From NCBI GenBank assembly GCA_037130845.1, contig JBAXSE010000013.1, forward strand, positions 1 through 38,664: DNA of 38,664 bases, written 5' to 3'. The stretch is from Candidatus Falkowbacteria bacterium (GTDB lineage: Bacteria; Patescibacteriota; Patescibacteriia; Patescibacteriales; Patescibacteriaceae). Below the pieces are notes generated by a model, which made no database searches, was not told where the DNA came from, and worked only from the letters and a program-made list of their open reading frames with translations. The position numbers and the translations under genes were made by a program. Positions 10,084 to 38,579 of the stretch are shown here, one piece after another (position 1 is the first letter of the stretch; each line of letters starts with the position of its first letter).

Positions 10084-11499
10084 ATGGCAGAAGGCAACAA
10101 AGCCAAGGGCATAGTCAAACCTGAGCGTCCGGGAGGATTCCTGGATTTTTTACCGGCCGATTATCTGGCGCGGGAAAGAATCTTTGGCATCATAGCAAAA
10201 GTTTTCCGGTCTTATGGCTACGATCCGATCGAAACACCGATGGTGGAATTTGCAAAATCCCTTGTCGGCGAAGACGAAACATCGAAAAATATATTCTATA
10301 TTTCCAACAAGAATAAGAATATGACGCAAGAAGGGCAGTTGGGTTTGCGTTTTGACCACACTGTACCCTTTGCCAGATTGTTAGCGGCTAATCCATACAA
10401 CGCCGACACTAAAGAAGGCATTAAACTGCCTTGGCGCCGTATGGTGGTTGGTCCGGTGTTCAGGGGCGAAAGTCCGCAGAAAGGGCGTTACCGCCAGTTC
10501 TATCAATTCGATGTCGATATAGTCGGAGTTTCTTCCATGATGGCAGATGCTGAGATTGTGGCTATAATCTATGAAACTCTGACAGCTTTAGGGCTTGATG
10601 ATTTTGTAATCAAGATTAATAATCGCAAGTTATTAAATGGCTTGGCGGAATTATTGGATGTCCACGATAGGGCGGAAGTAAATCGAGATGATATTACCAA
10701 GGCTATTTTTAGAATCTTGGATAAATTGGATAAAATCGGCCTGGATCAGGTATTGTTTGAATTAACGCAAGAGCCTGACAGCATCTTCGATCCGGCGCCT
10801 AATTTATCGTCAGAGGCTGGAGAAAAGATCAAATCTTTTATTAATATCGATGGTGACAACTACGAGAAATTAATAAAAGCTAAAACAGTCTTTGCGGGTC
10901 TAAGTATCGCCGAAGACGGCATAAAGGAATTAGAGCAGATCTTAGGATTTACAGCTGATCTCGGCGTTCCGAGCGATAAGGTGTTAGTTGACTTTGGCGT
11001 TGCTCGCGGGCTGGATTATTATACCGGTCCGGTGATGGAGACAAGTTTGCTGACTGCGCCGGAATTCGGCAGTGTTTTCTCGGGAGGCCGTTACAACAAT
11101 CTGATGGAACGTTTTACAGGACAAGAATTGCCCGCGGTCGGCGCGTCTATCGGAGTCGATAGATTATTTGCCGCCTTAAGGCAGCTTGGTTTGTTGGACG
11201 TTAGTCGGGCTACCATTACCGATGTTTTGGTAATGCGCATTGCGGACAATCTTGATAGTGAATATCTGGAAATCGCCAAGATAATCAGGCGCTGTGGCCT
11301 GAATACGGAGGTTTCTATGCTTGAAGACAGGACTTTTAAGGCTCAATTCAATTTTGCGTTGGGTCGTGGCGTTAAATACGCCATTATTTACGGAGAAAAT
11401 GAATCAATCAAGCGCACAATCCAGATTAAGAATCTAAGCACTCGAAAACAGACAGAAATTAATTTTTCCGATTTGGAAATATATTTTAATAATATTTAA
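10084..11499 (+). CDS. hisS: histidyl-tRNA synthetase
   Basis: class II aaRS motifs RFDHTVPFAR, ESPQKGRYRQFYQ (identical core to E. coli HisRS), GGRYNNL, plus C-terminal anticodon-binding domain. Confidence 0.9.
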   Translation: MAEGNKAKGIVKPERPGGFLDFLPADYLARERIFGIIAKVFRSYGYDPIETPMVEFAKSLVGEDETSKNIFYISNKNKNMTQEGQLGLRFDHTVPFARLLAANPYNADTKEGIKLPWRRMVVGPVFRGESPQKGRYRQFYQFDVDIVGVSSMMADAEIVAIIYETLTALGLDDFVIKINNRKLLNGLAELLDVHDRAEVNRDDITKAIFRILDKLDKIGLDQVLFELTQEPDSIFDPAPNLSSEAGEKIKSFINIDGDNYEKLIKAKTVFAGLSIAEDGIKELEQILGFTADLGVPSDKVLVDFGVARGLDYYTGPVMETSLLTAPEFGSVFSGGRYNNLMERFTGQELPAVGASIGVDRLFAALRQLGLLDVSRATITDVLVMRIADNLDSEYLEIAKIIRRCGLNTEVSMLEDRTFKAQFNFALGRGVKYAIIYGENESIKRTIQIKNLSTRKQTEINFSDLEIYFNNI

Positions 11500-11513
11500 T
11501 TTAGGAGTCAGAC

Positions 11514-13169
11514 ATGGAAAGGACTATTAGTCTAGATGGTCGCACTTTAACGCTGCAAGACGTTGTCTTGATAGCTCGCGGCTATCGCGGCCAAGACGGA
11601 CATCAACATTATCCATATGTTGAGTTATCCGAACAAGCACAAGCAGATATTGGCAGTTTTCGCCACGGCCTTGATCTTCGGATCGCGGCTGGCGATATTA
11701 TCTACGGTGTCAATACCGGTTGCGGTGTCAAGAAAGGCACTATCATTGATCAGAAAGAGATCGATGCCTATCAGGCTCATTATATTCCGGCGCATTGTGT
11801 CGGTTATGGCGAACCTTTTGATGAAGAAATTGTCAGAGCCGCTCTTGTTTTGCGGGTCAACTCTTTCGCCTTGGGAAATTCCGGAATCAGGCTGGAAACC
11901 TGCAATAAATTGTTGGAAATCTACAACAAGGGCGTGATTCCCTTTGTACCCGAACAGGGTTCGGTGGGCTCCAGCGGTGATTTGTGCCCGTTGGCTCATG
12001 TTGCGGCAGTCATTACTGGCGTCGAAGGACAACAAGCATTCTACCACGGCAAATTGATGCAAGCGGCAGAAGCTTTGTCGCTTGCCGGCATCGATCCGAT
12101 AGTATTAAAAGCCAAAGAAGCGATGGGCTTGACTAACGGCGCAACCTTAACTTTAGCCATGGGCTTGCTTGCTATTCATGATAGCAAAAAATTAATAGCG
12201 TATTCCCATATGGCGGCAGCATTGTCGCTTGAGGCGATCCGCGGTGAAAAAAACGCCTTTGACCCCAGAATCCACGAGGCCAGAAAGAACCAGCATAGCG
12301 CCAGAGTAGCGAAAATCATTCGTGACCTGACCAGCGGTTCAGACCGCATGACTACGTCAGCTAGAGATGTCTGTTTGACGGATGAGAAGAAATCGAAGAA
12401 ATATCAGGACGATGCTAAATCAAGGCCGACTCCTCGGGTCCAGGATGCCTATTCTTTCCGCGCCTATGCCCAGGTGGCAGGACCGGTGGTTAAAGCATTC
12501 GAGTATGCCGAAGAAGTCTTTTTGTCGGAAATGAATGCAGCTACAGATAATCCATTGATCTTTAAGAGCGGATTCGGGGAGAATGAAAGGTTTGAAGCGA
12601 TATCCGGTGGCAATTTTCATGGCGAACCGTTGGGTCAAGCAGCTGATTTTCTTAAGATTGCCATCCAGCAGTTGGCCAACATTTCCGATCGGCGTTTCTA
12701 TGCCTTGACGATGTCCACGACCAGCTATGGCTTGCCGGATGATTTGGCTGGAGCAATTAATCGCGATCTGAATACGGGATTAATGATCCTCCAATACACG
12801 ACAGCTGCTTTGGTATCAGAGAATAAAGCATTATGTTATCCTTCGGTTATCGATTCTATTCCGACTTCTGCAAACCAAGAAGATTATGTCAGTATGTCAA
12901 CTATCGGCGCGCGTAATCTGCGCAAGGTGATAAAAAATACTTATGGCGTTATCGGTGCCGAATTATTGGCTGCTGCCCAGGGCATATCACTGACCGAAGA
13001 CCAGCTAAGGCCGCTCGAGCTTGATGGCTTGGGAAGAGAAACTACCTTTGTTTATAAGAAGGTCCGCCAGGTAGTCGCCGCAATGTATGAAGATCGTTAT
13101 ATCCACAAAGATTTCAAGGCTTTGGTCGATTTCATGATAAAGTCTGATCCTCAGGATTTCTTACCATAG
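11514..13169 (+). CDS. hutH: MIO-dependent aromatic amino-acid ammonia-lyase family (histidine ammonia-lyase-like)
   Basis: GSVGSSGDLCPLAH (MIO-forming triad region, here Ser-Ser-Gly), NTG.G, overall HAL/PAL architecture; contains an extra charged insert EKKSKKYQDDAKSRPTPR. Confidence 0.75.
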   Translation: MERTISLDGRTLTLQDVVLIARGYRGQDGHQHYPYVELSEQAQADIGSFRHGLDLRIAAGDIIYGVNTGCGVKKGTIIDQKEIDAYQAHYIPAHCVGYGEPFDEEIVRAALVLRVNSFALGNSGIRLETCNKLLEIYNKGVIPFVPEQGSVGSSGDLCPLAHVAAVITGVEGQQAFYHGKLMQAAEALSLAGIDPIVLKAKEAMGLTNGATLTLAMGLLAIHDSKKLIAYSHMAAALSLEAIRGEKNAFDPRIHEARKNQHSARVAKIIRDLTSGSDRMTTSARDVCLTDEKKSKKYQDDAKSRPTPRVQDAYSFRAYAQVAGPVVKAFEYAEEVFLSEMNAATDNPLIFKSGFGENERFEAISGGNFHGEPLGQAADFLKIAIQQLANISDRRFYALTMSTTSYGLPDDLAGAINRDLNTGLMILQYTTAALVSENKALCYPSVIDSIPTSANQEDYVSMSTIGARNLRKVIKNTYGVIGAELLAAAQGISLTEDQLRPLELDGLGRETTFVYKKVRQVVAAMYEDRYIHKDFKALVDFMIKSDPQDFLP

Positions 13170-13184
13170 TTCTGTATAGCTATC

Positions 13185-13220
13185 TTGCCGACCTTCGGAC
13201 CTGGGTCGGCTTTTTTTTGG
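13185..13220 (+). terminator. rho-independent terminator
   Basis: GCCGACC-ttcggacctgg-GTCGGC + TTTTTTTT. Confidence 0.7.
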
Positions 13221-13251
13221 CTATTCGTAGTAAAATTGGATTGGCTGGCAT

Positions 13252-13286
13252 TTGACAAAACTAGGAATCATGCTAGAATATTGAAC
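13252..13286 (+). promoter_or_regulatory. sigma70-like promoter TTGACA-16-TAGAAT
   Basis: ttgacaaaactaggaatcatgctagaat upstream of ORF 13327. Confidence 0.5.
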
Positions 13287-13326
13287 AAAATAAAAATATC
13301 AGTTCATTAATAAAAAGGGTTAAAAG

Positions 13327-13995
13327 ATGCAAAAAAATACCTGCACTTATAGGAAAATAAATAACCTTGATAATGCCGCAGAAGCTGAAAAGTTAGCGCG
13401 TTGCTATCAGGAGGTTTTTGCCGGTTATCCTTGGAATGAATACAAGAAATGCCCTGATTGCGGGGTGAGGTGGGGCAAAGAAGATGCGCCGGAAGATGGA
13501 CGTTGTTCAAAATGTGATGCTACTCCCGTTCTTGTTGATTTCTGGGCGAAGGAGGATGTTATAAATGATTTCCAAAAACAATTACAAAGCTCCAGCGGCG
13601 TGTTGTGTGTTGCGGTTAATTCCAGAGACGAGATTACGGGTTTCTGTTCCGGTTACGAAACTACTCCCGAAGAATTGGAAAAGCATTTGCAGCTTCCTGA
13701 ATTGGCCAAATGGTTGCGTTGTTATTTTCCCAATGGTGTTAGATTCGGTTATCAAGATGAGATCGGCGTTCTCGATTCGTATCGAGGGCAGAAGATTGCT
13801 ACCGAACTTTTCAAGAAAAGAATGGAAGATTTTAAGGCAAGTGGTTTGGATATAGCTGTATTAAGAACCAAGACTATGCCTCCGACCATAACCTTTAAAT
13901 GGTACCCTCGATTGGGTTATAGTGTCATCCAATGTTATCATGATGATGATTGCCGTGTAATTATGGCGACAGAAATCAAGAGTATTCAGTTGTAG
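13327..13995 (+). CDS. GNAT-family N-acetyltransferase with an embedded CxxC...CxxC zinc ribbon
   Basis: GNAT motif A GVLDSYRGQKIATELF; insert CPDCG...CSKCD. Confidence 0.6.
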   Translation: MQKNTCTYRKINNLDNAAEAEKLARCYQEVFAGYPWNEYKKCPDCGVRWGKEDAPEDGRCSKCDATPVLVDFWAKEDVINDFQKQLQSSSGVLCVAVNSRDEITGFCSGYETTPEELEKHLQLPELAKWLRCYFPNGVRFGYQDEIGVLDSYRGQKIATELFKKRMEDFKASGLDIAVLRTKTMPPTITFKWYPRLGYSVIQCYHDDDCRVIMATEIKSIQL

Positions 13996-14019
13996 AACAG
14001 TTGAGCTTTACATGCCGAT

Positions 14020-14094
14020 GGACGCGTAGCTCAGTTGGCCCAGAGCAATGGATTGTGGCTCCATTTGTCACGGGTTCGATTCCCGTCGCGTCCA
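14020..14094 (+). tRNA. tRNA-His (anticodon GTG), discriminator A73, no genomically encoded G-1, no encoded CCA
   Basis: manual cloverleaf: acceptor GGACGCG/CGCGTCC 7 bp, D-stem GCTC/GAGC, anticodon stem ATGGA/TCCAT with loop TTGTGGC, T-arm ACGGG-TTCGATT-CCCGT. Confidence 0.85.
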
Positions 14095-14097
14095 CGA

Positions 14098-23143: not shown

Positions 23144-23821
23144 ATGGTAAGCAAGAATAATGTTTTTATGTTGGCTCCCGCTGAGCAACTGGCATCTTTG
23201 AGGGTGGATTTGGGCGAATTGCCTGATTTTAACCCGGACTTTATCGTCAAGCCTCTGCCGGACAAGGCAGCAAATAATTTTGTCGTGCCTCAGTGGAGCA
23301 TATTAGCGCCGACCTATCTGGAAGCTTTGGACAAGGTGCATCAGGCTTTGGCAGCTCATTTGGAGTTTACTAATGGCCTAAACCTGTCTCATGGCGAGCG
23401 CCAGGACCTCAAGTTCCTGCGTCCCCAATTTCGTACGGTTAAAGGATGGGAAAAAATGGTTCAGGCGCAGCAGTGCGGTGTAGTAATTGTGCCGGCGCAG
23501 TTTACCGGGCATTATCAGGATCTTGGCTTCCGTAATTTGTATACGGAAAAGATGAACAGGGAAGATGAGTTTGGCCTTGATCCGTATACCGTCGCCATTG
23601 TTTTGCTGTCGCATCAATATTTGTATTATGACGGTGCTGAACTTAATTTGGATATCCGTTGCGCCGGAGCGCATTATCCGCCCCGTAATCCGCCGGATGC
23701 TGACAGTAGTTCTATTTTATATTTTCTCAAGTCGCAGGAGGGTAAGCAAGAATTGTTTCTCTCTAGCAATGCCCATACTTTTAGCGATGCTGAAGGTTGG
23801 GCGACCGGCTATATTCTCTAG
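23144..23821 (+). CDS. hypothetical protein (225 aa), no recognisable domain
   Basis: strong RBS AAGGAG 6 nt before ATG. Confidence 0.6.
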   Translation: MVSKNNVFMLAPAEQLASLRVDLGELPDFNPDFIVKPLPDKAANNFVVPQWSILAPTYLEALDKVHQALAAHLEFTNGLNLSHGERQDLKFLRPQFRTVKGWEKMVQAQQCGVVIVPAQFTGHYQDLGFRNLYTEKMNREDEFGLDPYTVAIVLLSHQYLYYDGAELNLDIRCAGAHYPPRNPPDADSSSILYFLKSQEGKQELFLSSNAHTFSDAEGWATGYIL

Positions 23822-23896
23822 CCAAAAATCAAAGAATCGGGTATCAAATCCGATTCTTTTTCTTCCCTTTTTTCCTAATATTAGGCAAAAAATTAT

Positions 23897-23945
23897 ACAC
23901 CACACTTCAGTAAACTAGTTTACTGAAGTGTGGTGTGTTTTTGTA
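23897..23945 (+). terminator. very strong rho-independent terminator (perfect 18-bp stem)
   Basis: ACACCACACTTCAGTAAA-ctag-TTTACTGAAGTGTGGTGT + GTTTTTG. Confidence 0.85.
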
Positions 23946-23969: not shown

Positions 23970-23998
23970 TTGACATTTTTGGCCTTTTCTGGTATTTT
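23970..23998 (+). promoter_or_regulatory. promoter TTGACA-17-TATTTT for the RNAP-like gene
   Basis: cttgacatttttggccttttctggtatttt about 70 nt upstream of ATG 24070. Confidence 0.45.
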
Positions 23999-24069
23999 GT
24001 ATTTACTCCAATTTTTGGTCGGGAGGATAAAACATAGGATCATTTAGTACCTTTACAAAGGAATAAGCA

Positions 24070-26706
24070 ATGAATGTTGCACAATTAAACACAGAAAAGC
24101 GTCTTGCTACGGCTATTATGCCTTGGAAAGACATCAGCATCGGTTCGGCCGCTATTGTTTCTAGCACTATCGCTAATAGCGGTATTTTTACTTCTACCCA
24201 AACCTTTAAGATTCAAGTTCCGCTTAGTGTTAACGAAAGCGTAACCAGGGATTATGACGGTTATCGCTTGCCAATGGACAAGCTGGACGAAGACGGAGTA
24301 ATCCGAGTCGGCGAGAGCGTCGCCTTGGGTGATGTGCTGGTTGCCATGATTGAATATGATCCACGAGAGTATCAGCCGGAAGAAAAATTGCTCAAAGCAA
24401 TTTTTGGCGACGGTGCTACTAACGTGACCGATCGTTCGGTTACCATGTCTTTCCCTGATCCTGCTATAGTCTATAGCGTCGAAAAAAAACTCGAAGGCAA
24501 AAAAAAGCTGGTGACTGTTTATCTGGCCTTTAAACGTAAACTACGTTTGGGTGATATTCTGGTCGATAGCAAAGGTAACCAAGCAGTTGTCTCGGCTGTT
24601 GTTGCTGATAATGAAATGCCTTATCTGAAAAGCTCGCAAACCAGAGCTCAAATAGTGGTTACGCCGCTCACTGATTGCGGCGAAACGATGGTAGATCATT
24701 TGGATAAACAAAGGCTGGTTGTGGTATATGATACCGAAGATCCCAAGTTTATCCTGATAGCGCCGCCGCTTGATAGGCCAAGCAAAAATAAGAAGTGGTT
24801 ATGCAAAGATGAAGAAGCGCGTTTTGGGGCTATCGCTTGGAAAAAATTAGAACTATTGTCCGGTCAAAAGAATATCGGTTATGGCGTTCAAAGTAGATTG
24901 CGCAACGATGCCCAATTGGTGGATGGCATCAAGATCCGCCAAGAATTTATCACAAGCCTGTTGCATTACAATCTGCCGGCTGTAGCCAGAGAATTTTTGA
25001 CCGTCAAGTCTGACGATGCCAAAGGCTACGGCGATACTGTACAAGCTATTATTAATGGATGGTCTTTGCCCGCAGCGGCTGCTCCGGCTTCGCTAAAGCG
25101 CTATGAAGCGACGATCAAGGCAATGGCCTTGACTATCGGAGTCGATAACGGCAGTAGGCAAGTCGGCTTACTTGATGGCTATAATTATCCCAACCAGGAT
25201 TTGCCAGGTATTGGCGTTTCTTTGTGGGTAACTCCGCAATCAGAGATTTTGGCTCAGTCCCACGGTGAATTGACCGGTGTTGATTATATGGATGATGCTA
25301 TCAAGCAGGCTCAAGGGAAAAAGAAAACAGACAAGATAGAAGTCGGTTTGTTCAGCCAACGCATTTTCGGCCCTCTACGGGATTATGAATGCGCTTGCGG
25401 TAAATACAAGCGAGTCCGCTATAGCGGCATCGTCTGCGATCGTTGCGGTGTCTTGGTAGCGCAAAGCTCTGTGCGCAAAGAACGTTTCGGCCATATCAAC
25501 CTGGCTTTGCCTTGCGTGCATCCTTTGTTCGAAAAAGCAGTTGCCGAGTTATATAAGTCGATCGATTACACGAACACTCCGCAATATTTTGAAGAGCTGA
25601 TCGAAAAAAACTTTGATCTAGAAAAAGCCGATTATCTTTTTGAATGTTCCGAGATAATGAAAAAGTTATCGTTGCCCGAACAGCAGATTCTTAATGTCAT
25701 CCCGGTCATGCCGGCCGGTTGGCGTTCCGATTGGATGTCTTATACTAGCAGTTGGACAATGGATTTAAATTATCTATATAGCAGATTAATGACTCGTAAC
25801 AATCGATTGACTCGATTAATCGACATCAAAGCTCCTTGGATGATTATCTCCAATGAATATCGAATGCTACAAGAGGCTTTGTCTGAATTATTTAATTGCA
25901 CTCATTTGGGGAGTGAGACTCCGCCTGTCGGATTGATCCATAGCCTGCAAGCAGCCGGTCGCAATCTTTATGACAAAAAGGTTAGTTATTCCGGACGTGC
26001 GCTGGTTATCCCAGATGACCGCCTGGCAATCGACGAATGCGTTTTGCCTAGAACTCTGGCAGTCAGATTGTTTGAGCCTTTTGTGCTTCAGCGCTTGATG
26101 GCATCGCCGCCGGAAACTCCTTGCGACCCGATTTGGGACGATTCTTATCCGGATCTGCCTCCTATCTTGGCAGATGTAGTAGTAGATATTGCCGCTGGCA
26201 ATAAGACTACAGTCGATCTAAAGAAGATTGATGAAGATGAAGCTAGAGCTTATCCGGGCTATACCTACAAGACGGCTAGTGGAATGGTTAAAAATAACCA
26301 CCCCGAAGCATTGGAAAAGCTGGAAGCGATTGTTGGCGATAGGGTTGTCCTATTGAGCTCTGTCAGTCAGATAGAATTTGCCGGTTTTTGTCCACGTTTA
26401 AGTAACGAAGAAGTCATCAGACTTCATCCGCAGGCTATTAAGCTTCTTGGTATTTCTCTGGGTAAGGCTGGCAAGGCGTTAGTCTATCTACCCTTGTCTG
26501 ATGATGCTCAAGCGGAAGTCAAAGGTGTTATGTGCGGCCAAGAATGGTCGTATGTTCCTCAGACTCCGAGCGTTGGATATAGCTCTGTTCTTAATAGTAA
26601 TCTCAAGCATCTTGTTTCTAATCCTTGGTTGGATCAACCGGAGCCGGAAACCTGCAAATGGTTGCTATCCTTAAATGATCGATTTTTGCTCAATTATAGC
26701 AAATAG
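24070..26706 (+). CDS. catalytically inactive RNA polymerase beta(C-terminal)/beta-prime(N-terminal) fusion paralog (clamp + zinc-binding-domain module)
   Basis: N-half matches RpoB C-terminus ([17 protein letters not shown] ~ [36 protein letters not shown] ~ [29 protein letters not shown] ~ LTVKSDDVNG). C-half matches RpoC N-terminus ([31 protein letters not shown] ~ [44 protein letters not shown] ~ [40 protein letters not shown] ~ [37 protein letters not shown]...LFEPFV ~ RVDYSGRSVI...LFKPFI). NADFDGD is replaced by ISLGKAGK. Confidence 0.85.
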   Translation: [878 protein letters not shown]

Positions 26707-26714
26707 AAACCGAA

Positions 26715-26752
26715 GCCTCTCCGACGCCATGTCTGGGAGGTTTTTATTTGCC
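26715..26752 (+). terminator. rho-independent terminator
   Basis: CCTCTCC-gacgccatgtc-TGGGAGG + TTTTTATTT. Confidence 0.55.
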
Positions 26753-26830: not shown

Positions 26831-27154
26831 GTGATACATTTGTTTAATTTGCATAATAAATCGACTTCTTTTGCTTGGGAGTGGTATATAGAGCGTTTGA
26901 TGCTGGTTTTGCCAATCTGGATAGTGATGGTGCTGGTTGGCATCTATGGAACCGTTTGCTATTTTCAAGTCGATATAAACCATCTGGAGAAGTATAGGGG
27001 AGACGTAAGTAATGTCCATTTGATGCTGATATTAAGCCTGGTAATCCCGACCCTAATCTTTGCTATCGACCTGCCAATCTCATATTATCTGGCGAAACGC
27101 AAAGAAAAAAGCCGTGAAAACTTAATCGAAGTTGCGCCCAAAAGCCAAAATTGA
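26831..27154 (+). CDS. small membrane protein (2 TM, 107 aa)
   Basis: GGAGGATGGGGC then GTG start; two hydrophobic helices. Confidence 0.5.
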   Translation: MIHLFNLHNKSTSFAWEWYIERLMLVLPIWIVMVLVGIYGTVCYFQVDINHLEKYRGDVSNVHLMLILSLVIPTLIFAIDLPISYYLAKRKEKSRENLIEVAPKSQN

Positions 27155-28860: not shown

Positions 28861-28879
28861 AATAGGAGTTTGTGTGAAA

Positions 28880-29524
28880 ATGCATCAAGCTGATATCAAT
28901 TTGTTTTACAGCTGTTTTTACTCACTTGGTCTTGATAGTCGTGACAAAGGCTTTGCCGCTTTAGCCGAGTATGTAGTGAATACTTATGCTGAACCGGGCA
29001 GGCATTATCACGATTTCGGGCATATTGGTAAGATGTTGAATGTTTTGGATCAATACTTACCCGAAGCAGATAGTTTGGATGCTTTACGCATTGCGATATT
29101 GTTTCATGATCTAAGGCAAGGCCATAAACACGAGCGTGAGAGCGCTTCAATGGCTGGAATTTTGCTTAAGCCTTTCAACCATGTCTTAGGTCGAATGCTA
29201 ATCAATCGAGTTGCCGAGCTGATACTCGACACTGTCCACCCAGGCAACCCCACGACCAATGACGGCCAATTGATCCACGATATCGATCTGTATGGCTTCG
29301 GCCAGAGCTTTGAAGAGTGTCGAGATGCCAGCCGGGGAATACGATTGGAGTATGCCGATATGAATGATGAAGATTTCTATCAGGCGCAAAAAGGTTTCTT
29401 TGAACATCTATTGTCGCAAGACAGTATCTACAAGCATCCGAGCTTTGCCATCTTTGAAGACAAAGCCAGGAATAATCTCAAAAAGCTAATAAAGATCCTG
29501 CCGATCTTGAGTATAATGCCCTAA
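28880..29524 (+). CDS. putative HD-superfamily metal-dependent phosphohydrolase
   Basis: H..HD.GH motif RHYHDFGHIGKM and downstream ILFHDL; AGGAG RBS before ATG 28880 (ORF frame opens GTG 28874). Confidence 0.4.
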   Translation: MHQADINLFYSCFYSLGLDSRDKGFAALAEYVVNTYAEPGRHYHDFGHIGKMLNVLDQYLPEADSLDALRIAILFHDLRQGHKHERESASMAGILLKPFNHVLGRMLINRVAELILDTVHPGNPTTNDGQLIHDIDLYGFGQSFEECRDASRGIRLEYADMNDEDFYQAQKGFFEHLLSQDSIYKHPSFAIFEDKARNNLKKLIKILPILSIMP

Positions 29525-30503: not shown

Positions 30504-32876
30504 ATGTTATTAAGCATTGTCCTACAGTACATCGTTCCGATAATCGTTGCGTTCATCGTATTGATTGTCGTTATGAATTCATTCGCGAACGCCAAAGGCG
30601 ATCAGATTATTTTGTTAGAACGCCGTTGGTTCGGCAAGTCTATGCCGGACGGCCGTACAGTTGCTCTTCATAATGAAGTCGGCGTCCAGGCCAGAGTTCT
30701 GGGTCCAGGTTTCCATTGGTTGATTCCATTTATTTATAAGACAACCAAGATGCCTTTTACCACCATCCATAAGAATAAGGTCGGTGTCGTGCGTGCCATT
30801 ACTGGTGCCACTTTGCCGAGCGATAAGATTATGGCCAAGACGGTAGCTTGTGACTATTTCCAAGATGGCGAAGCCTTCTTGATGAATGGCGGACAAAAAG
30901 GTCCGCAGATTACCATACTGCCAGACGGTGAATACAAGATTAATCCGCATTTGTTCAATGTGGTAGAAGTTGAAGCCATCATGATTGATGATGATCATAT
31001 TGCAGTCGTTGAAGCCATTGCCGGTTTACCGGTCACTAGGCCCGGAGGAAACTTTGGATCGCCAGTACCCTGTGATAATTTCCAGGATGGCGAAGCTTTC
31101 TTGGCAAACGGCGGACAGAAAGGCCCGCAGGTTGCTTTTATAGAGCCAGGGTTCTATAGGATTAATACGATCATGTTTGACGTAGCGCTCATGCCTATTA
31201 CCGTAATACCAGGCGGGCATGTTGGTTTGGTTTTAGCGACTGATGGTGCCAGGATTCCTGAAGGCCGTTTGTTGGCTAACAAAGTAGAAGGACATGATAA
31301 TTTCTATAATGGCGAAGCTTTCTTGGCAAAAGGCGGCGAAAGAGGCCGTCAAATCGATACTTTGCCTCCGGGAAGATATAGGCTTAATCCAAGACTCTTT
31401 GAAATCAAAGAAAATGCTATTATCCCTTGGACGAACATTTCGGCCGATGAGGTCGGAATTGTGACAGTCAATGAAGGTAGGCCGATTATCGACGCTACCA
31501 AGATAGCTGCTGAAGAACTACCCATGGGTACGCACAATAATTTCCAGGATCCGAACGCCTTCTTGAAGGCTGGCGGACAAAAAGGTTTGCAGATTCCAGT
31601 GCTACGCGCCGGAAACTATGCAATCAATCCCTGGTTCTGTACTGTGGAAAAAGTACCGATGGTCCAGGTGGCAATCGGATTCTGCGGCGTCGTCACTAGC
31701 TATGTCGGTGAAGAGGGCAAAGATCTGACGGAAGATGATGTCAATGCCAAGATTGTCGAGAACGGCAAGAAGGGTATTTGGTCCGAACCGTTACAGCCGG
31801 GCAAACACCCCTTGAATACCAAGATCTGTAAAGTGGACATTGTGCCCACGACCCAGATATTGCTTAATTGGGCGGATAACCGTTCCAGTGCTCATGAGCT
31901 TGATACTAACTTGAAGACCATTACCTTACGTACGTCAGACGCCTTTAATGTTAATATGGATGTCTCCGTGATTATCCATATCCCAATGAAGAATGCGCCG
32001 AAGGTTATCGCCAATCTTGGATCGGTCAAGAATATGATTTCTCAGGTTCTTGAACCGGCTATCTCGTCGCACTTCCGTAATGCTGCTCAGTATATCCAGG
32101 CATTGGAATTATATACCAAGCGTAAAGAATTACAGGATACTGCTAAGGTTCATATCGATAGCGTACTTAAGGTGCACCATATCGATTCCAAGGAAACTTT
32201 GATTGCTGATGTTGTCCTGCCGCTCGAATTAACCAAGACGGTTACCGACAGGCAGATTGCCGAACAGGAAAAGAAAACCTTCTTTACTCAGAAGGAGGCA
32301 CAGGATGAAAGACGTACTCTCGAAAACGCCAAGGCCCAAGCAGATATGCAGCCTGAGGTAGTTAAATCCGAGAGGAATGTCGAAATCGCCAAGAACATCG
32401 CCGAAGGTAAGGTCAAGGAAGCGGAAGGTATGAAATCCGCCGCTATCTTGAAGGCTACCGGTGATGCCGAATCAGTCAAACTGAAAGCCAGAGCTGACGC
32501 CGAAGCAGTCACTGTGACCGCCGAAGCGAACGCCAAGAAGGTCAAGGTCACGGCTGAAGCCGATTCTGAGGCTATCATGAAAGTTGGAACATCCGAAGCT
32601 GATATCATATTAGCCAAAGGTAAATCAACTGCCGAGTCCTACAAGCTGGAAGTCGATGCCATGGGCAAAGAGGTCTTTGGACAGATCCGTGTAGTCAGAG
32701 AAATCGCAGCCAGCAAGCTGAAATTCATTCCTGAAAACTTAATTATCGGCGGTGGCAGCGGTGCTGGCAGCAGTTCGATGGAAAACATGATGGGCATTGC
32801 TTTGATGGAAAAGCTATCCGGCAGAGCATTTAGTGCTACCGAAAAAGCTGTTGAAAAAACAGAAGTAAAAGTTTAA
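30504..32876 (+). CDS. flotillin/SPFH (band-7) family membrane protein with four tandem N-terminal repeats
   Basis: N-terminal TM helix; 4x repeat (D/N)NFQDGEAFL.NGGQKGPQ...PG.Y.INP.LF.V; central SPFH-like region; C-terminal EA/K-rich flotillin-type coiled coil; RBS AAGGAAG. Confidence 0.65.
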   Translation: MLLSIVLQYIVPIIVAFIVLIVVMNSFANAKGDQIILLERRWFGKSMPDGRTVALHNEVGVQARVLGPGFHWLIPFIYKTTKMPFTTIHKNKVGVVRAITGATLPSDKIMAKTVACDYFQDGEAFLMNGGQKGPQITILPDGEYKINPHLFNVVEVEAIMIDDDHIAVVEAIAGLPVTRPGGNFGSPVPCDNFQDGEAFLANGGQKGPQVAFIEPGFYRINTIMFDVALMPITVIPGGHVGLVLATDGARIPEGRLLANKVEGHDNFYNGEAFLAKGGERGRQIDTLPPGRYRLNPRLFEIKENAIIPWTNISADEVGIVTVNEGRPIIDATKIAAEELPMGTHNNFQDPNAFLKAGGQKGLQIPVLRAGNYAINPWFCTVEKVPMVQVAIGFCGVVTSYVGEEGKDLTEDDVNAKIVENGKKGIWSEPLQPGKHPLNTKICKVDIVPTTQILLNWADNRSSAHELDTNLKTITLRTSDAFNVNMDVSVIIHIPMKNAPKVIANLGSVKNMISQVLEPAISSHFRNAAQYIQALELYTKRKELQDTAKVHIDSVLKVHHIDSKETLIADVVLPLELTKTVTDRQIAEQEKKTFFTQKEAQDERRTLENAKAQADMQPEVVKSERNVEIAKNIAEGKVKEAEGMKSAAILKATGDAESVKLKARADAEAVTVTAEANAKKVKVTAEADSEAIMKVGTSEADIILAKGKSTAESYKLEVDAMGKEVFGQIRVVREIAASKLKFIPENLIIGGGSGAGSSSMENMMGIALMEKLSGRAFSATEKAVEKTEVKV
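30850..31770 (+). repeat. intragenic tandem repeats (4 copies, period 216-240 nt)
   Basis: copies begin near 30852, 31068, 31294, 31533 (AATTTCCAGGATGGCGAAGC(T/C)TTCTTG...GGCGGACA(A/G)AAAGG). Confidence 0.7.
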
Positions 32877-32945: not shown

Positions 32946-33129
32946 CGTAACTAATCAACCTTGGACCTTGACGGATTTTTGAAAGGGGGATAATATAGTG
33001 TTATATTTACACTAAGTAAAAATGCTATTGACATCGCTTAGGTAAAGTGTTTAGATAGGCTCATTATTACGATAATAAAAAGCTAATAATAGCATAAAAT
33101 TGTTCATTAATATATTTGCGGAGGATAAA

Positions 33130-33807
33130 ATGGAAAGGTCTAATAGAGTAATTATCCCGGGTTTAGGGACTATTCTCAGGCTTAAGATCGCTAGCATGCA
33201 TGTCGATGCGGAAAACGGCTTTGCGCCCCTGTGTCCGTTGGAACTGCCGGTACCGGACGGCCAGAATATTGTACACGAGCTGATAGCTCAAAATAACTTC
33301 GCCCGCTATCTGGTAGGCAGCAAAGAAGGACACTCGGACCATCCCCAATGGGCGGCCACCGAGAGCGAGCCGGCCTTTACGCCGATGACGGGCTATCCCA
33401 ATATGAATCGGCGTTGGAATGTGCATTGCGCTATCGGTACCTATGGCGGACAATTGCTGGACGGACTGCCGCCGATTAGCGGCTATGATTTTATGGTCTG
33501 GAAGGGCATTGAAGATGATATGCATCCCTATGGGGCTTGCTATCACGACCTGGCCAAGAAGCTGTCTACCGGGCTGATAGAATGGCTGACCTGCCAGAGA
33601 ATCTCGACAGTGATAGTGGGTGGTCTGGCGACTGATTACTGCGTGCTGGAAACAGTCTTGGAATTATTAGAGGCTGGTTTTGAAGTAGTAGTCAATCTGG
33701 GAGCTTGCCGCGGTGTCGCAACAGACACGACAGACACAGCTATCAAAAAGATGATTAAGCACGGCGCGATTATTATCCAGTCCAGCCAAGAACTAACGCT
33801 TGTCTAA
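33130..33807 (+). CDS. pncA: nicotinamidase (isochorismatase-family)
   Basis: HVDAENGF (VDxQNDF-type) motif, catalytic Cys in GLATDYCV, conserved Lys region; GGAGG RBS before ATG 33130. Confidence 0.75.
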   Translation: MERSNRVIIPGLGTILRLKIASMHVDAENGFAPLCPLELPVPDGQNIVHELIAQNNFARYLVGSKEGHSDHPQWAATESEPAFTPMTGYPNMNRRWNVHCAIGTYGGQLLDGLPPISGYDFMVWKGIEDDMHPYGACYHDLAKKLSTGLIEWLTCQRISTVIVGGLATDYCVLETVLELLEAGFEVVVNLGACRGVATDTTDTAIKKMIKHGAIIIQSSQELTLV

Positions 33808-33947
33808 GGGCACGATCCATCGCAAAGTCAAACAGGGGAAAGCCAGCCTTTCCCCCTACTCAAGTGGCGCTGAAAGTTTCGGCGCCAGCTGTCTAGGCAG
33901 TTCTTTAAAATTGAATAATCAAATTGTTATATTTATCAGGAGTAGAC

Positions 33948-35222
33948 ATGTATTTACCATCAAGTTTGTTCAGCTACAAGCAGGACAAAGGCATCATCCA
34001 AACGCTCATGGATGTGGACTTCTATAAGTTCACTATGGGGCAATTGGCCTTTAAGTATTATCGCAATGTGCAAGTGACCTTCAAGTTCACCAATCGCAAT
34101 AAGAATGTTAAGCTGGCCAAGATTATCGATATCGCCCGTTTGCGTGAAGAGCTGGACCATTGCCGTACCCTAAGCTTCAAGAATTCGGAGATCCATTATT
34201 TGCGCGGTACTAATGAGTATCAGCATAGGATGTTCGAGGAAGATTACTTGCAGTTCTTGGCGACCTTGCGTTTGCCAGATTATGAGCTGGAATTTGTGGG
34301 AGATGAAATTTGGCTGACCTTTACGGGCTTTTGGCCGGAAGTGACATTGTGGGAAACCCTCGCCTTGTCGATTATCAACGAGCTCTATGTTCGTGCCATG
34401 TTAGGCAAGGATACTAGCGCTTGGGAACGCAACTACGCTGTCGGAGTCACCAGGTTGTATGAGAAGATTGAAAGCTTGCGCGAATATCCGGAATTAGTCT
34501 TCACTGATTTCTGTACCCGTCGCCGTTTTAACGGCCCGTGGCAGGGATACTGCATCGAGACGACCGTGCGAGAATTACCCGGGCAGTTCCTGGGCACTTC
34601 CAACGTGATGTTCTCTCAGCAATTGGCAGACCACAATTTCGTCCCTATGGGCACATCCGCTCATGAACGTGATATGGTGTTGGCTGCTTTGCAGTTCAAT
34701 AGCGATGTGGGCATCCTTAATAGCCTCTGGCAGAGCGCGGATGAATGGTACAATCAATATGGCGAAGGCCTGTCTATCTTTTTGCCCGATACCTTCGGCA
34801 CCGATGCCTTTTTCGCCCAATTCGGGTCGGCTCGAGCCAAAAAATGGAAGGGCTCGCGGCAAGATTCCGCTGATCCATATGCCTACGGCAGAAAGTTGAT
34901 CAAGTATTATGAAGGCTATGAGATTGATCCACGAAATAAAATGTGCATCTTTAGCGATGGCTTGACGCACGAATTGATGATTTGTTTGCATATATATTTC
35001 CATCGGCAGCTCAAAGATGGTTATGGCTACGGCACGCATTTCGGCAACGACTTGCTGGTTCCGCCTTTGCCCATTGTGGTCAAAGTCGACAGCGTCAACG
35101 GCAATCCGGCTGTCAAGCTTTCTGACAATCTGGCCAAAGGCATGGGATTGCAGACTGAACAAGAGCGTTACAAAAGGATATTTGGCTACACGCGTGATTT
35201 CAGACAAGAATGTGTTGTATAA
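33948..35222 (+). CDS. pncB: nicotinate phosphoribosyltransferase
   Basis: N-terminal LMDVDFYKFTMGQ (TDxYKLTM signature), overall NAPRTase length; AGGAG RBS before ATG 33948. Confidence 0.85.
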   Translation: MYLPSSLFSYKQDKGIIQTLMDVDFYKFTMGQLAFKYYRNVQVTFKFTNRNKNVKLAKIIDIARLREELDHCRTLSFKNSEIHYLRGTNEYQHRMFEEDYLQFLATLRLPDYELEFVGDEIWLTFTGFWPEVTLWETLALSIINELYVRAMLGKDTSAWERNYAVGVTRLYEKIESLREYPELVFTDFCTRRRFNGPWQGYCIETTVRELPGQFLGTSNVMFSQQLADHNFVPMGTSAHERDMVLAALQFNSDVGILNSLWQSADEWYNQYGEGLSIFLPDTFGTDAFFAQFGSARAKKWKGSRQDSADPYAYGRKLIKYYEGYEIDPRNKMCIFSDGLTHELMICLHIYFHRQLKDGYGYGTHFGNDLLVPPLPIVVKVDSVNGNPAVKLSDNLAKGMGLQTEQERYKRIFGYTRDFRQECVV

Positions 35223-35240
35223 TTTAACTCGGAGTTTAGA

Positions 35241-36149
35241 ATGATAGTAGAAAGAAGGAAGTTCTATGGTCTGAACGGAGTGATCCAGGAAGACCGTGAG
35301 CGGTTTAAGCATATTCCTTTGTTGGAATTCTCTAAGGAAGTTATGAATAGTTTTTCTCTTGCCAGTACAAAGATACGCGACAAGGATGATCTAGAGAAAG
35401 CGGTAGCTGATATTTATTGCAAATGGACGGCAGGCTATGGTTATTATGGCGATGTCATCAATGTTAGCTGTTTTATTGCTGACGACCATTGTTATCTGCA
35501 AGTAAATTATATCGCTCGTTTGGCTTTTCCCAAGCCGAATATGGCCTCCGACCTGGTGCCTATCGTGATTGATAATCGCGGCTATGCCTTTCTGATTGCC
35601 ATTACCCGCAAATACAATCCCGGTAAAGGCGGACTTGCCTTGATAGGCGGCTTCCGAAGCGTGATCAAGAATCGCATGGAAACGTCAGTTGAAGCAGCAA
35701 TGCGAGAGGCTAGTGAAGAAGCAGTCGGTCTTGATCTAGAGTATATAGTTAATTGTCACGATGGGATATATTCTAATATAACTCCCCAAAACAGTCAGGC
35801 GATACTAGTGCTGGGCCTGCGTCATGAGATTGTCGGCGGCATCTGGCAGCAGGTGGTGAATCTGGAGTGGTTGGGTACTTATCGTACTGCTCCGGATCGA
35901 GATGAATCATACATCACTCGGCAACGAGTCGATATAACTGATGCTTATGTCCTGCCGATTCGAGTTGATCGGCTGTTGACCAAAGCAGAAATCGCCACTT
36001 GGTTTAGACCGGGCGATGATGCTGAAACGGTCGAAATTATCCGGATTGACGATGGCTACGAGCCTGCTTTTGTCTTTAACCATCATAGTGTCATCTTCAA
36101 GGAAGCTTGGAAAAAGATCGCGAATGAAGTGGCCGTTCTCTATATGTAA
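35241..36149 (+). CDS. two-domain protein: unknown N-terminal domain + C-terminal NUDIX hydrolase (likely ADP-ribose/NAD-related pyrophosphatase given context)
   Basis: Nudix box GGFRSVIKNRMETSVEAAMREASEEAVGL; GGAG RBS. Confidence 0.6.
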   Translation: MIVERRKFYGLNGVIQEDRERFKHIPLLEFSKEVMNSFSLASTKIRDKDDLEKAVADIYCKWTAGYGYYGDVINVSCFIADDHCYLQVNYIARLAFPKPNMASDLVPIVIDNRGYAFLIAITRKYNPGKGGLALIGGFRSVIKNRMETSVEAAMREASEEAVGLDLEYIVNCHDGIYSNITPQNSQAILVLGLRHEIVGGIWQQVVNLEWLGTYRTAPDRDESYITRQRVDITDAYVLPIRVDRLLTKAEIATWFRPGDDAETVEIIRIDDGYEPAFVFNHHSVIFKEAWKKIANEVAVLYM

Positions 36150-36165
36150 GCAAATTGATTATTCA

Positions 36166-36200
36166 CAGTCGACGGCTAACACGACCGTCGACTATTTATC
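36166..36200 (+). terminator. terminator hairpin
   Basis: AGTCGACGG-ctaacacga-CCGTCGACT + ATTTATCT. Confidence 0.5.
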
Positions 36201-36264
36201 TAAGCGATCAAACTCTTGATCCTTTGGATAAGTAAAGTACTTTGAAAATTTATAAGGAACAATC

Positions 36265-37002
36265 ATGAAATATTTAACCGTTTTTTCGGACAGTCTGGCT
36301 GCACAAGATCTAGCCCGCCAAGTCAAGGAAAAGCATTTGCAGGTAACCGATGATCCGCAACAAGCGGATGCGATTATCGTTGGTGGTGGAGATGGCACTA
36401 TGTTGCACGCAATTCATCAGTATTGGCAATTAAAGGTACCTTTTTTAGGAATTAATTGTGGTTCGGTCGGTTTTTTATTAAACCCTGTCGAAACGGAGAG
36501 GGATCTTTTGTTGTTATTGCATCATTTCCAAGAGGTTAAATTGAACTTAATGGAAGTGCATATAGATGCTGAAAGCGATAGCTTTACCTTGCATGCCTTC
36601 AATGACGTTTATCTAAACGTCAAACCGGGCTCCATTTGTTATGGCACGATTCAAGGCGAGCATTATCCCAGACAAAAATTTCGTGGAGACGGCCTAATAG
36701 TAGCTACCGGCCAAGGTTCAACGGCCTACAATCGTAATGCCGGCGGGTCGATATTACCTTTGCAAAATGACCTGTTGGCTATTACCGGTATTTGTACTTA
36801 TGATACGCTACGCGATGTGGTGTCTCAACAGGATCTGATTATTACTATCACTCGTGGTGAGGTGACGGCCAATGCTGACAATCAGTCGGTAGCCGGTGTC
36901 AGGTCAATCGTTATCCGTCCGGGCTTTAGCACTGTCGCCTTGGGTTTCCGCCCCGACTATAATTTCGAAAGCAAAAGATATTCATTCTATAACCAATTCT
37001 AG
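36265..37002 (+). CDS. nadK: NAD kinase
   Basis: GGDGTML, NDVYLN, DGLIVATGQGSTAYNRNAGGSILP motifs. Confidence 0.85.
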   Translation: MKYLTVFSDSLAAQDLARQVKEKHLQVTDDPQQADAIIVGGGDGTMLHAIHQYWQLKVPFLGINCGSVGFLLNPVETERDLLLLLHHFQEVKLNLMEVHIDAESDSFTLHAFNDVYLNVKPGSICYGTIQGEHYPRQKFRGDGLIVATGQGSTAYNRNAGGSILPLQNDLLAITGICTYDTLRDVVSQQDLIITITRGEVTANADNQSVAGVRSIVIRPGFSTVALGFRPDYNFESKRYSFYNQF

Positions 37003-37012
37003 GAGTGCAGTA

Positions 37013-37954
37013 ATGTATAAATTAACACAGCAACAGTTGGCTGACGTAGCAAAATACGCCAGCTCTAACCTCTACGCCTATTGCGTGAAAAATAATATCC
37101 ACCATCTGGTGGTTGGTTCTTCCGGCGGTTTGGACAGCGCGGTTACGCTTAAACTAGCTCAATTAGCCTGCAACTTAGCCGAAAAAGATGGCTATGAATT
37201 AAAGAGCATCGGCATGGTCTTGCCTTGTTTCTCCAGCCGTAGGTCGATTGATTTGGGTCGGCTAGCTATTAGGTCTGCCGGTGCTGAAGTAATCGAAATC
37301 AATCTGGATAAAGCTTTTAGTGCTTTGATGAATAATGCAGTCGAGGAAGGCATCGGGTGGCAGTTGGATGACATCGAACCTGATGTAACGGCTGCCGACT
37401 GGCGGCAAAGGCGAATCATCGCTCAGGGCAATATCAAAGCTCGTCTGCGTATGATCCATGTCTATCAGGTAGCCGGCTTGCTCAAGGGCATAGTGCTCTC
37501 GACCGATAATCTGAGCGAACTATGGATGGGCTTTTGGACCCTGCATGGGGACGTAGGCGACTACGGCATGATTCAGAATCTGCTCAAAGGCTTGGAGCTC
37601 TATGACTTGGCACGCTACTTGGGCGTACCGAAAGAGATTATCGCGGCTAAGCCGGACGACGGACTAGGCATAGGCAAAGGGGATGAAGATCAGTTGCATG
37701 CGCCTTATGACAAGATTGATGAAGTGATGATTACGTTCTATCAACAGAACGAACCGCATATCATAAACAGACGACACTCGGCAGTCCTGCCGGCTGTCGA
37801 GGGAGTGAAGCCGGAAGTAGTCTCAGAATTAGTGGCTCGCTACCAAGCGACCAATTATAAGCGTTGGGGGACGGTCAATCTGACCCGCAGCGACTTGCAT
37901 CTGCCGCCAATCAACAATATCAATCTGCGAGGCGACAGTGAAAACCAAGCTTGA
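37013..37954 (+). CDS. nadE: NH3-dependent NAD+ synthetase
   Basis: PP-loop VVGSSGGLDSAV; ATG 37013 after AGGAG (ORF frame opens 36896 overlapping nadK). Confidence 0.85.
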   Translation: MYKLTQQQLADVAKYASSNLYAYCVKNNIHHLVVGSSGGLDSAVTLKLAQLACNLAEKDGYELKSIGMVLPCFSSRRSIDLGRLAIRSAGAEVIEINLDKAFSALMNNAVEEGIGWQLDDIEPDVTAADWRQRRIIAQGNIKARLRMIHVYQVAGLLKGIVLSTDNLSELWMGFWTLHGDVGDYGMIQNLLKGLELYDLARYLGVPKEIIAAKPDDGLGIGKGDEDQLHAPYDKIDEVMITFYQQNEPHIINRRHSAVLPAVEGVKPEVVSELVARYQATNYKRWGTVNLTRSDLHLPPINNINLRGDSENQA

Positions 37955-38579
37955 TTTCATCCAAGGCTTCAAGGCCTTAACCGAACTGGCATTGGCCGCT
38001 GCCAAGCCGGTAGTAGTATTAATTGCCGGAGCCAGTGGTTCCGGCAAGAGTCATCTGGCTAAGCTGTTGTCCGCCAAGCTGCTGCAATGCGGCATTTTGA
38101 CTACCGTTATTGGACAGGATGATTATTTCCGCGATTGTTTCGATCCCGATTTGCCGCTCGATAGCCAAGGACGGGGAATCTTCGATCTGCCGGCTTCCTA
38201 TCTCGATTTGGAACTGGCTAGCGACATCCGCATGTTGCTTAGCGGCTTTACGGTCCAGGGTCCGCTTTATGACAAGAAAGTCAATCTGCGGTCGCTAACC
38301 AAGAAAACGCTGGAAGCTGCGCCTGTGGTTATTGTGGAAGGTCTCTATGCCATTTTGGCGTTGGCTGATAATGATGATATGCCTATCATCAAGATTTATG
38401 TGGAGGCCGACTCGGATATTTGTTTGCGGTCGCGAATTAGGCGTGATACCGTGGCTTTTGGCATCAGCGCCGAAAAGGTAGAGAAATTCTACAACGAACG
38501 GGTATTGCCTTATGCCAAGGAGGCCTTGACCGACCAGGCCAAGCTGGCTGACTTGATTATCGTTAATGATCACCTATAA
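37938..38579 (+). CDS. uridine kinase/phosphoribulokinase-family P-loop kinase (candidate nicotinamide-riboside or uridine kinase)
   Basis: Walker A IAGASGSGKSHLA; Udk-type blocks VIGQDDYF, PLYD, VIVEGLYA, IKIYVEADSDICLRSRIRRD; GTG start overlapping nadE by 17 nt. Confidence 0.7.
   Translation: MKTKLDFIQGFKALTELALAAAKPVVVLIAGASGSGKSHLAKLLSAKLLQCGILTTVIGQDDYFRDCFDPDLPLDSQGRGIFDLPASYLDLELASDIRMLLSGFTVQGPLYDKKVNLRSLTKKTLEAAPVVIVEGLYAILALADNDDMPIIKIYVEADSDICLRSRIRRDTVAFGISAEKVEKFYNERVLPYAKEALTDQAKLADLIIVNDHL

Follow-up and report, generated by a model that had tools for sequence, protein, structure and literature searches.

The window analyzed here, the whole 38,664-nucleotide stretch of contig JBAXSE010000013.1 from a Candidatus Falkowbacteria metagenome-assembled genome (MAG), carries on its forward strand an intact open reading frame (ORF) of 878 amino acids (aa) that begins with ATG and occupies positions 24070 to 26706. 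Its product is annotated in the deposited record as a hypothetical protein. We identified it as a stand-alone, catalytically dead paralog of the large subunits of RNA polymerase (RNAP), in which a C-terminal part of β (RpoB) is fused to an N-terminal part of β′ (RpoC); the assignment draws on Pfam, NCBIfam, PDB chains, a family profile, and a structure model. In Pfam, the protein matched Rpb2_6 (aa 10 to 199, E = 2e-23), Rpb1_1 (E = 6e-22), and, below threshold, Rpb1_2, and the same scan returned no Rpb2_1 to Rpb2_45, Rpb1_3, Rpb1_4, or Rpb1_5. β′ chains in the PDB aligned to it in three stretches (E = 1.7e-52). These results bear out the RpoB/RpoC homology claimed in an earlier note on this DNA, which had described two non-adjacent pieces with the β part starting near residue 90. 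Instead, a profile built from eight relatives aligned with E. coli β 799 to 1342 (E = 3e-77) and then with β′ 17 to 494 (E = 1e-147), which indicates one contiguous slice across the β C terminus and the β′ N terminus, trimmed at both ends. The β-derived part begins at residue ~5 and the β′-derived part at ~391.

The top NCBIfam model was the fused ββ′ subunit PRK09603, with a best-matching stretch (aa 298 to 486, model positions 1311 to 1495 of 2890) that spans the junction, and, as in a fused ββ′ subunit, one ORF runs across the β/β′ boundary. The scores nevertheless fell far short of the cutoffs: 230 bits versus 5372 for fused subunits of the PRK09603/PRK14844 type, whose complete β plus β′ content is lacking; 206 versus 963.5 for RpoC (TIGR02386), whose full-length architecture is lacking; and 108 versus 801 for RpoB (TIGR02013), whose N-terminal lobe, protrusion, fork, and Rif pocket are lacking. 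In terms of E. coli numbering, the protein spans β ~800 to 1342 and then β′ ~17 to 510. The β-derived module (aa 1 to 360; 24070 to 25149, forward strand) lacks lineage insertions and holds the flap, a remnant of the β double-psi barrel, and the β C-terminal part of the clamp. The β′-derived module (aa 391 to 878; 25240 to 26706, forward strand) holds the zipper, zinc-binding domain (ZBD), lid, clamp helices, and rudder, together with a switch 2 that is truncated and a double-psi barrel/dock whose active site is dead. Absent are β 1 to ~800 and β′ from ~510 to the end, and with them the lobe, protrusion, and Rif pocket, as well as the bridge helix, trigger loop, jaw, and secondary channel. The shortening that had been placed between the ZBD and switch 2 lies between the ZBD and the lid, where ~55 aa remain versus ~140 in E. 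coli.

The paralog is not a singleton but a member of a family. When 1.84 billion representative proteins were searched exhaustively by HMMER with the eight-sequence profile, dozens of proteins of 560 to 1035 aa matched it end to end, and a script-based classification yielded at least 65 clusters (50% identity) sharing the boundaries at β ~800 and β′ ~510. NADFDGD and GRHGNKG are present in 0 of the 65 representatives; nearly all canonical β′ and fused ββ′ matches carry NADFDGD or the variants NADYDGD and NSDFDGD. In a neighbor-joining tree of the β′-derived part together with 90 canonical β′ sequences, the family formed one clade in 20 of 20 bootstraps, and its sole apparent intruder, P0271, is itself a short fusion. 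Shared derived substitutions (β M1066L in 97% of members and β′ I114P in 83%) and shared derived deletions (β 1101 to 1124, β′ 336 to 338, and β′ 424 to 425) support a single origin. The family is old, rare, and monophyletic, and it stands apart from canonical β′. A C-terminal domain of the RNAP α subunit (α-CTD; PF03118) is fused to the C terminus of 11 of the 65 members, which fall in two subclades; one member has two copies, and the R265 and G296/K298 determinants, residues that bind UP-element DNA, are kept in about half or more of the fused domains.

By composition and context, the members fall into three main groups: a high-GC, Myxococcota-like group (29 members, one of them named as Polyangia related), an intermediate group (18 members, including P0008, whose contig's own β′ most resembles Patescibacteria β′), and a low-GC group (9 members, including the window protein). 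The family is thus spread over genomes resembling the candidate phyla radiation (CPR), Myxococcota-like genomes, and others, and a cluster look-up of 10 members showed mostly metagenomic singletons. A scan of GTDB species genomes with the eight-member alignment listed at least 80 loci, and among those listed all were canonical rpoB-rpoC junctions and none held a family member. In word-indexed protein searches, canonical β′ dominated the matches to the full family profile, and a family-specific C-terminal sub-alignment gave no matches.

Every motif quoted in the earlier note was verified (the flap-tip motif, the four zinc-ligating Cys residues, DSKGNQAV, SSVSQIEF, and ISLGKAGK), and its view that the protein is catalytically dead holds throughout the family. 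At 24112 to 24153, the position of β MPWNGYNFEDS, KDISIGSA replaces the NFED segment and the acidic pair E813/D814 is lost. At 24547 to 24591, the position of the β GRHGNKG region, DSKGNQAV replaces GRHGNKGV, and K1065, H1070, and K1073 are lost. Alignment to the PDB chains placed SSVSQIEF (26356 to 26379) where β′ has NRAPTLHRL and ISLGKAGK (aa 795 to 802; 26452 to 26475) where β′ has the Mg-binding NADFDGD, with all three Asp residues gone; all four sites lie on the forward strand. The β NPLGVPSRMN and β′ switch 2 KQGRFRQN motifs have also disappeared. The Asp triad, the β Lys/His motif, and NFED are kept in 0 of 65 members, NRAPTLHR and the switch 2 arginines are lost in all 65, and β 1101 to 1124, the NPLGVPSRMN region, is deleted in at least 70%. 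Across the family alignment, no newly conserved acidic cluster takes the place of the triad, and the only invariant residues (D162, E308, F433, G434, P548, and R552) occupy structural or lid positions. The catalytic Asp triad and basic residues of two-barrel (double-psi β-barrel) polymerases are likewise missing. The 878-aa protein cannot polymerize RNA, and, as ~1,700 β plus β′ residues and all catalytic residues are missing, it cannot be the cell's polymerase.

The losses are selective. To quantify them, we expressed retention as the frequency in the family of residues that are at least 90% invariant in canonical subunits, comparing the 65 members with 60 canonical β/β′ pairs from named genomes. 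Retention was 0.82 in the ZBD, the best-kept region family-wide, 0.65 in the clamp helices, 0.61 in the lid, 0.60 in the zipper, and 0.54 to 0.61 in the flap, versus 0.18 in the β NFED segment, 0.11 in β NPLGVPSRMN (60% gaps), 0.19 in β′ NRAPTLHR, 0.32 in β′ NADFDGD, and 0.34 in both switch 2 and β K1065 to K1073. What survives is the upstream docking face of RNAP, comprising the flap and its tip helix, the ZBD, zipper, lid, and clamp helices; what has eroded is the catalytic center.

In the window protein, alignment places all of these docking elements on the forward strand. The flap-tip helix, equivalent to E. coli β 897 to 907, lies at 24376 to 24408 (aa 103 to 113) and bears the PEEKLL.AIFG motif, with the hydrophobic patch L901/L902/I905/F906 intact; the flap domain with this helix is a feature shared with RpoB. 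The ZBD (25360 to 25452) keeps its four Cys ligands (C441, C443, C456, and C459) and, together with the clamp coiled coil, matches what characterizes RpoC. The lid-region motif (E. coli β′ VLPVLPPDLRP) is found at 25696 to 25728, and its P548 and R552 never vary among the 65 members. The clamp helices, the docking site for sigma region 2 and NusG, occupy 25762 to 25896 (aa 565 to 609; E. coli β′ ~264 to 309). R275, E295, and A302 of these helices and the flap-tip patch are needed for sigma-70 binding. The window protein keeps all three positions and the whole patch; family-wide, R275 is retained in 82%, E295 in 91%, A302 in 57%, and the patch residues in 58 to 72% of members.

The AlphaFold2 (AF2) model, for which we used the run with 65 sequences (a run with 8 sequences reached a predicted local distance difference test score, pLDDT, of only 61.5), has a confident fold. 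In structure comparisons, it scored 16.5 against β′ (413 residues aligned, 3.5 Å) and 13.4 against β, 12.8 to 13.6 against the isolated β-flap domains crystallized with phage gp39 and T4 gp33 (3woe and 3tbi), 11.7 against an engineered stand-alone archaeal clamp bound to Spt4/5 (3qqc), and ~9.5 against minimal double-psi barrels. The matches to β′, β, flap, clamp, and barrel structures together indicate that the module exceeds a clamp: as modeled, it comprises the clamp, the flap with its tip helix, and RNA exit channel elements carried on two barrel remnants. The description of the protein as a free clamp and zinc finger module was therefore right as to the ZBD and clamp helices but too narrow, since the flap with its tip helix, the lid, the zipper, the dock, and both barrel remnants are also kept.

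The gene is maintained and is not a decaying duplicate, as the earlier note had supposed and as the monophyly of a family of at least 65 clusters also attests. A syntenic ortholog, P0002, is intact (67% aa identity by BLASTP, 0.69 over aligned columns), and its flanks match those of the window (helicase, 225-aa ORF, 106-aa membrane ORF, and ABC-F gene). Between the two genes, dN/dS is 0.13, with dS at 1.66 being near saturation; the ratio is 0.03 to 0.04 for the neighboring helicase and ABC-F genes and 0.08 to 0.15 for the small neighbors. The paralog gene is under purifying selection and evolves faster than core housekeeping genes. Nor is it a remnant of the only rpoBC locus: on a 1-Mb contig, the family member P0008 directly follows full-length rpoB, rpoC, dnaG, and rpoD, so that coexistence with the canonical genes is seen at that locus, and P0008 is nearer to other family members (33 to 62% identity over the full length) than to the β′/β of its own genome.

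Based on these patterns, we hypothesize, at a probability of roughly 0.42, that the paralog may serve as a non-catalytic "pseudo-core," a docking platform above all for sigma, which it would sequester or hold in promoter complexes that do not transcribe. In this model, the clamp helices would receive sigma region 2 and the flap-tip helix would receive sigma region 4, and NusA or NusG might be docked too. The paralog could then compete with core RNAP for sigma, buffering or sequestering it; alternatively, a paralog-sigma pair could occupy promoters in complexes unable to transcribe, given that clamp-helix docking is known to unmask the -10 recognition of sigma. This second outcome would fit best in the members bearing an α-CTD, and either outcome would tune transcription initiation without RNA synthesis. 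An extended -10 promoter can be melted by sigma with nothing more of RNAP than the fragment β′ 1 to 314 (Young 2004, cited in PMC4057154), and sigma region 2 binds -10 single-stranded DNA with higher affinity once it is docked on the clamp helices (PMC12000874). There is also structural precedent, in that isolated flap domains and an engineered clamp have been crystallized bound to partners (3woe, 3tbi, and 3qqc). The roles of sigma decoy and clamp mimic suggested in the earlier note both fit the evidence. The α-CTD fusions link the family with promoter DNA or activators. A bolder version, namely, that the family is a natural "pseudo-RNA polymerase" that together with sigma (and, in some members, a tethered α-CTD) might recognize and perhaps even melt promoters without transcribing them, is possible but doubtful.

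Several observations weigh against a platform dedicated to sigma. Sigma shares the retained surfaces with NusA, NusG, nascent RNA, and phage proteins, so that retention of these surfaces does not single it out, and exact retention of the flap-tip patch reaches just 58 to 72% family-wide. Between the two closest orthologs, conservation of the former active-site segments is 0.60 to 0.73 versus 0.67 overall, which implies that part of the constraint is simply structural. The window protein itself has no α-CTD. No conserved partner gene, including sigma and anti-sigma genes, was found in twelve family neighborhoods, and tblastn of the window neighbors against nine family loci revealed no common partner. 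Adjacency to rpoD occurs at one locus only, that of P0008, and is suggestive only.

The alternative that fares best relies on the very same retained elements: the paralog might mimic the RNA exit channel and the docking site of elongation and termination factors, binding NusA (through the flap tip), NusG (through the clamp helices), or RNA (through the ZBD, lid, and flap), and so titrate NusA/NusG or act on RNA in processing or decay. The best-kept part, the ZBD, contacts RNA/DNA, the engineered stand-alone clamp of 3qqc binds Spt4/5, and RNA metabolism genes neighbor the family at three loci (a DEAD/DbpA helicase in the window and at locus L001, and RNase Y and RNase P protein genes downstream of P0006). 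However, these neighbors are not conserved family-wide, and the α-CTD fusions speak for promoter DNA or activators, not for RNA, which leaves this explanation unlikely.

Many phage inhibitors bind the flap or the β′ N terminus, and the free surfaces of the paralog could therefore soak up or sense phage or toxin proteins that attack RNAP. We consider such a decoy or sponge improbable, given that PADLOC returned no match for the paralog or its neighbors, that the neighborhoods are housekeeping contexts rather than defense islands, that no effector partner accompanies the gene, and that the α-CTD fusions would go unexplained. Still less probable is an assembly or structural partner of RNAP that pairs with α or with nascent β/β′, or replaces part of the core. 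Although the protein retains β C-terminal regions that lie near α in core RNAP and one member sits within an rpoB-rpoC-dnaG-rpoD cluster, it lacks the first 800 aa of β and the last ~900 aa of β′ and so cannot complete a core; a clash with the resident β/β′ is expected, and the inspected loci hold no partner gene for the missing parts. A working polymerase with an unconventional active site, of the minimal two-barrel type seen in YonO or QDE-1, is effectively excluded by the loss of the Asp triad, β Lys/His, NFED, NRAPTLHR, and switch 2 arginines in 65 of 65 members, the deletion of β 1101 to 1124 in at least 70%, the lack of a substitute acidic cluster, and the absence of the bridge helix and trigger loop. 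A decaying duplicate, pseudogene, or assembly chimera, for which the destroyed catalytic motifs and the chimeric nature of some database relatives (such as P0003) might speak, is effectively excluded even more firmly by the intact 878-codon ORF and syntenic ortholog, the dN/dS of 0.13, the sharing of its boundaries by at least 65 independent clusters, and the confident AF2 fold.

Set against known systems, the paralog is homologous across the junction to canonical RpoB/RpoC and to the fused ββ′ subunits of Helicobacter and Wolbachia (PRK09603 and PRK14844), which share its flap, ZBD, lid, and clamp helices and, in the fused forms, its single polypeptide across the junction. It differs from them in being truncated at both ends, in having lost the catalytic motifs, in forming a separate clade, and in coexisting with the canonical genes at the P0008 locus. 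Cyanobacterial and plastid γ (RpoC1), in contrast, belongs to an active enzyme as one of its subunits, retains NADFDGD, and reaches further than the paralog. YonO of SPβ, QDE-1-type RNA-dependent RNA polymerases, and gp66 of crAss-like phages are active, keep the metal-binding Asp residues, and are very distant from cellular β/β′, whereas the paralog is close to bacterial β/β′ (E 1e-52) and dead. The recombinant archaeal clamp in 3qqc (complex with Spt4/5) is, unlike the paralog, an artificial construct. Inactive paralogs or mimics that regulate transcription include Gfh1, the anti-sigma factors Rsd and AsiA, and 6S RNA, and also the archaeal TFS4 (PMC5715097). The paralog would share with all of them one proposed logic, a non-catalytic copy or mimic competing for a surface of the transcription machinery. 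The folds of all five are unrelated to that of the paralog and none comes from the large RNAP subunits; the likeness would be one of function.

A further counterpart is the "minimal machinery" of β′ 1 to 314 plus sigma, which is enough for -10 recognition and melting (Young et al. 2001, 2004; cited in PMC4057154 and PMC12000874) and comprises the same non-catalytic β′ ZBD and coiled-coil fragment. That fragment is a laboratory construct, whereas the paralog is a natural gene under selection that has the flap-tip helix in addition and for which sigma binding is only predicted. In this sense, the family may be nature's version of such fragments and could become a tool for studying sigma docking, promoter melting, and the binding of exit channel factors apart from catalysis.

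To our knowledge, no free-standing inactive β/β′ paralog is known, in agreement with the earlier note, and we found no description of one in full-text literature searches, which did not cover subscription journals. As the protein lacks defining features of β, β′, fused ββ′, and two-barrel polymerases and yet clearly derives from them, we regard it as a new kind of protein rather than a variant subunit, with a function that we can only propose. Genes for the large subunits of bacterial RNAP are generally regarded as single copy and strictly catalytic, and a selected, free-standing, dead copy of exactly the half that offers docking sites to sigma and elongation factors would add a player of a new kind to the control of bacterial transcription; a pseudo-RNA polymerase, if true, would be a new class of global transcription regulator drawn from the polymerase's own large subunits. 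Its presence in genome-reduced CPR bacteria is unusual, given that an 878-codon gene is costly to keep. The recurrent α-CTD fusions render the hypothesis directly testable.

The surroundings of the gene include candidate expression signals. Upstream, at 23895 to 23938, a perfect palindromic hairpin of 18 to 20 bp, with an A-run before it and a T-run after it, is terminator-like on both strands and would insulate the gene from the upstream 225-aa ORF. A sigma-70-type promoter-like site on the forward strand follows at 23970 to 23998 (TTGACA, a 17-nt spacer, and TATTTT with a TG extension; 10 of 12 positions matching), and AAAGGA at 24057 to 24062 (forward strand), read from the sequence, resembles a ribosome-binding site 7 nt before the ATG. 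Downstream, at 26715 to 26750 on the forward strand, an imperfect GC-rich hairpin (CCUCUCC...GGGAGG, ~26715 to 26741) followed by UUUUUAUUU is a weak intrinsic terminator candidate (-18 kcal/mol over a 61-nt stretch, z = -2.3). The promoter-like site and upstream hairpin that the earlier note took as signs of an independently expressed, insulated gene thus exist; however, the region is not richer in promoter-like sites than its shuffles (12 found versus 9.1 expected), which makes the promoter plausible but unproven, and the downstream hairpin is weaker than the upstream one.

The window as a whole is ordinary chromosome, with hisS, histidine ammonia-lyase, tRNA-His, DEAD/DbpA helicase, ABC-F, and SPFH protein genes and a NAD salvage cluster. 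A phage origin, which the earlier note had also considered, found no support: PHROGs gave only full-length β/β′-type profiles, BFVD gave only generic viral RNAP subunits at no more than 22% identity, and PADLOC gave no match. A defense system was rejected, with no PADLOC match and no defense-island setting.

Among the relatives, some unusual architectures were observed. Two members of 1269 aa, P0182 and P0210, one of high-GC-type and the other of low-GC-type composition, have in common a Cys-rich N-terminal extension of ~420 aa with several Cys-x-Cys/Cys-x2-Cys zinc ribbon-like motifs and no Pfam match, and they look like a distinct sub-architecture of the dead β-β′ family. In P0137, P0140, P0193, P0202, and P0203, the family core is followed by a Cys-rich stretch (C..C.G.P.GT.IGL.AA) that resembles the β′ second zinc site and trigger loop base, suggesting that the ancestor may have reached further into β′ and was trimmed by internal deletions. 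P0177 (2031 aa) combines α N-terminal domains (RNA_pol_L and RNA_pol_A_bac) with β and then β′ domains and has the active site NADYDGD; it represents a natural α-β-β′ triple fusion or else an artifact of assembly or gene calling. In P0003 (1031 aa), a β′ N terminus (~1 to 440) precedes a β C-terminal part, the reverse of the natural order, and only its ZBD matches the window protein (68% identity across 7% of the query), so that a chimeric assembly is probable. At locus L094, a 342-aa protein with Sigma70 region 4 and HARE-HTH domains (10358 to 11386) is encoded ~6 kb downstream of P0178, a single, non-adjacent case.

Within the window, three small genes near the paralog keep their synteny in L001/L002 but do not lie beside other family members: the 225-aa ORF with no family match (23144 to 23821), a predicted membrane protein of 106/107 aa (26831 to 27154), and a 216-aa protein with a phosphohydrolase PHROG match (28874 to 29524; E = 8e-27). 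The 790-aa SPFH/Band-7 protein (30504 to 32876) has 86% identity in L001/L002; its SPFH domain starts only from residue ~420, and its N-terminal part has no family match. A hybrid sensor of 965 aa on the reverse strand (3489 to 6386) combines PAS domains, HisKA, HATPase, and a receiver domain and is large for a CPR genome. A histidine cluster at 10084 to 14095 encodes histidyl-tRNA synthetase, an aromatic amino acid (histidine) ammonia-lyase, and a GNAT acetyltransferase, with tRNA-His(GTG) at 14020 to 14095. Finally, the NAD salvage/biosynthesis genes at 33100 to 38579 encode an isochorismatase/nicotinamidase-like protein, nicotinate phosphoribosyltransferase, NAD kinase, NAD synthase, and a kinase of the PRK/uridine kinase family, and the ORFs at 36265 to 37002 and 36896 to 37954 overlap by ~100 nt.

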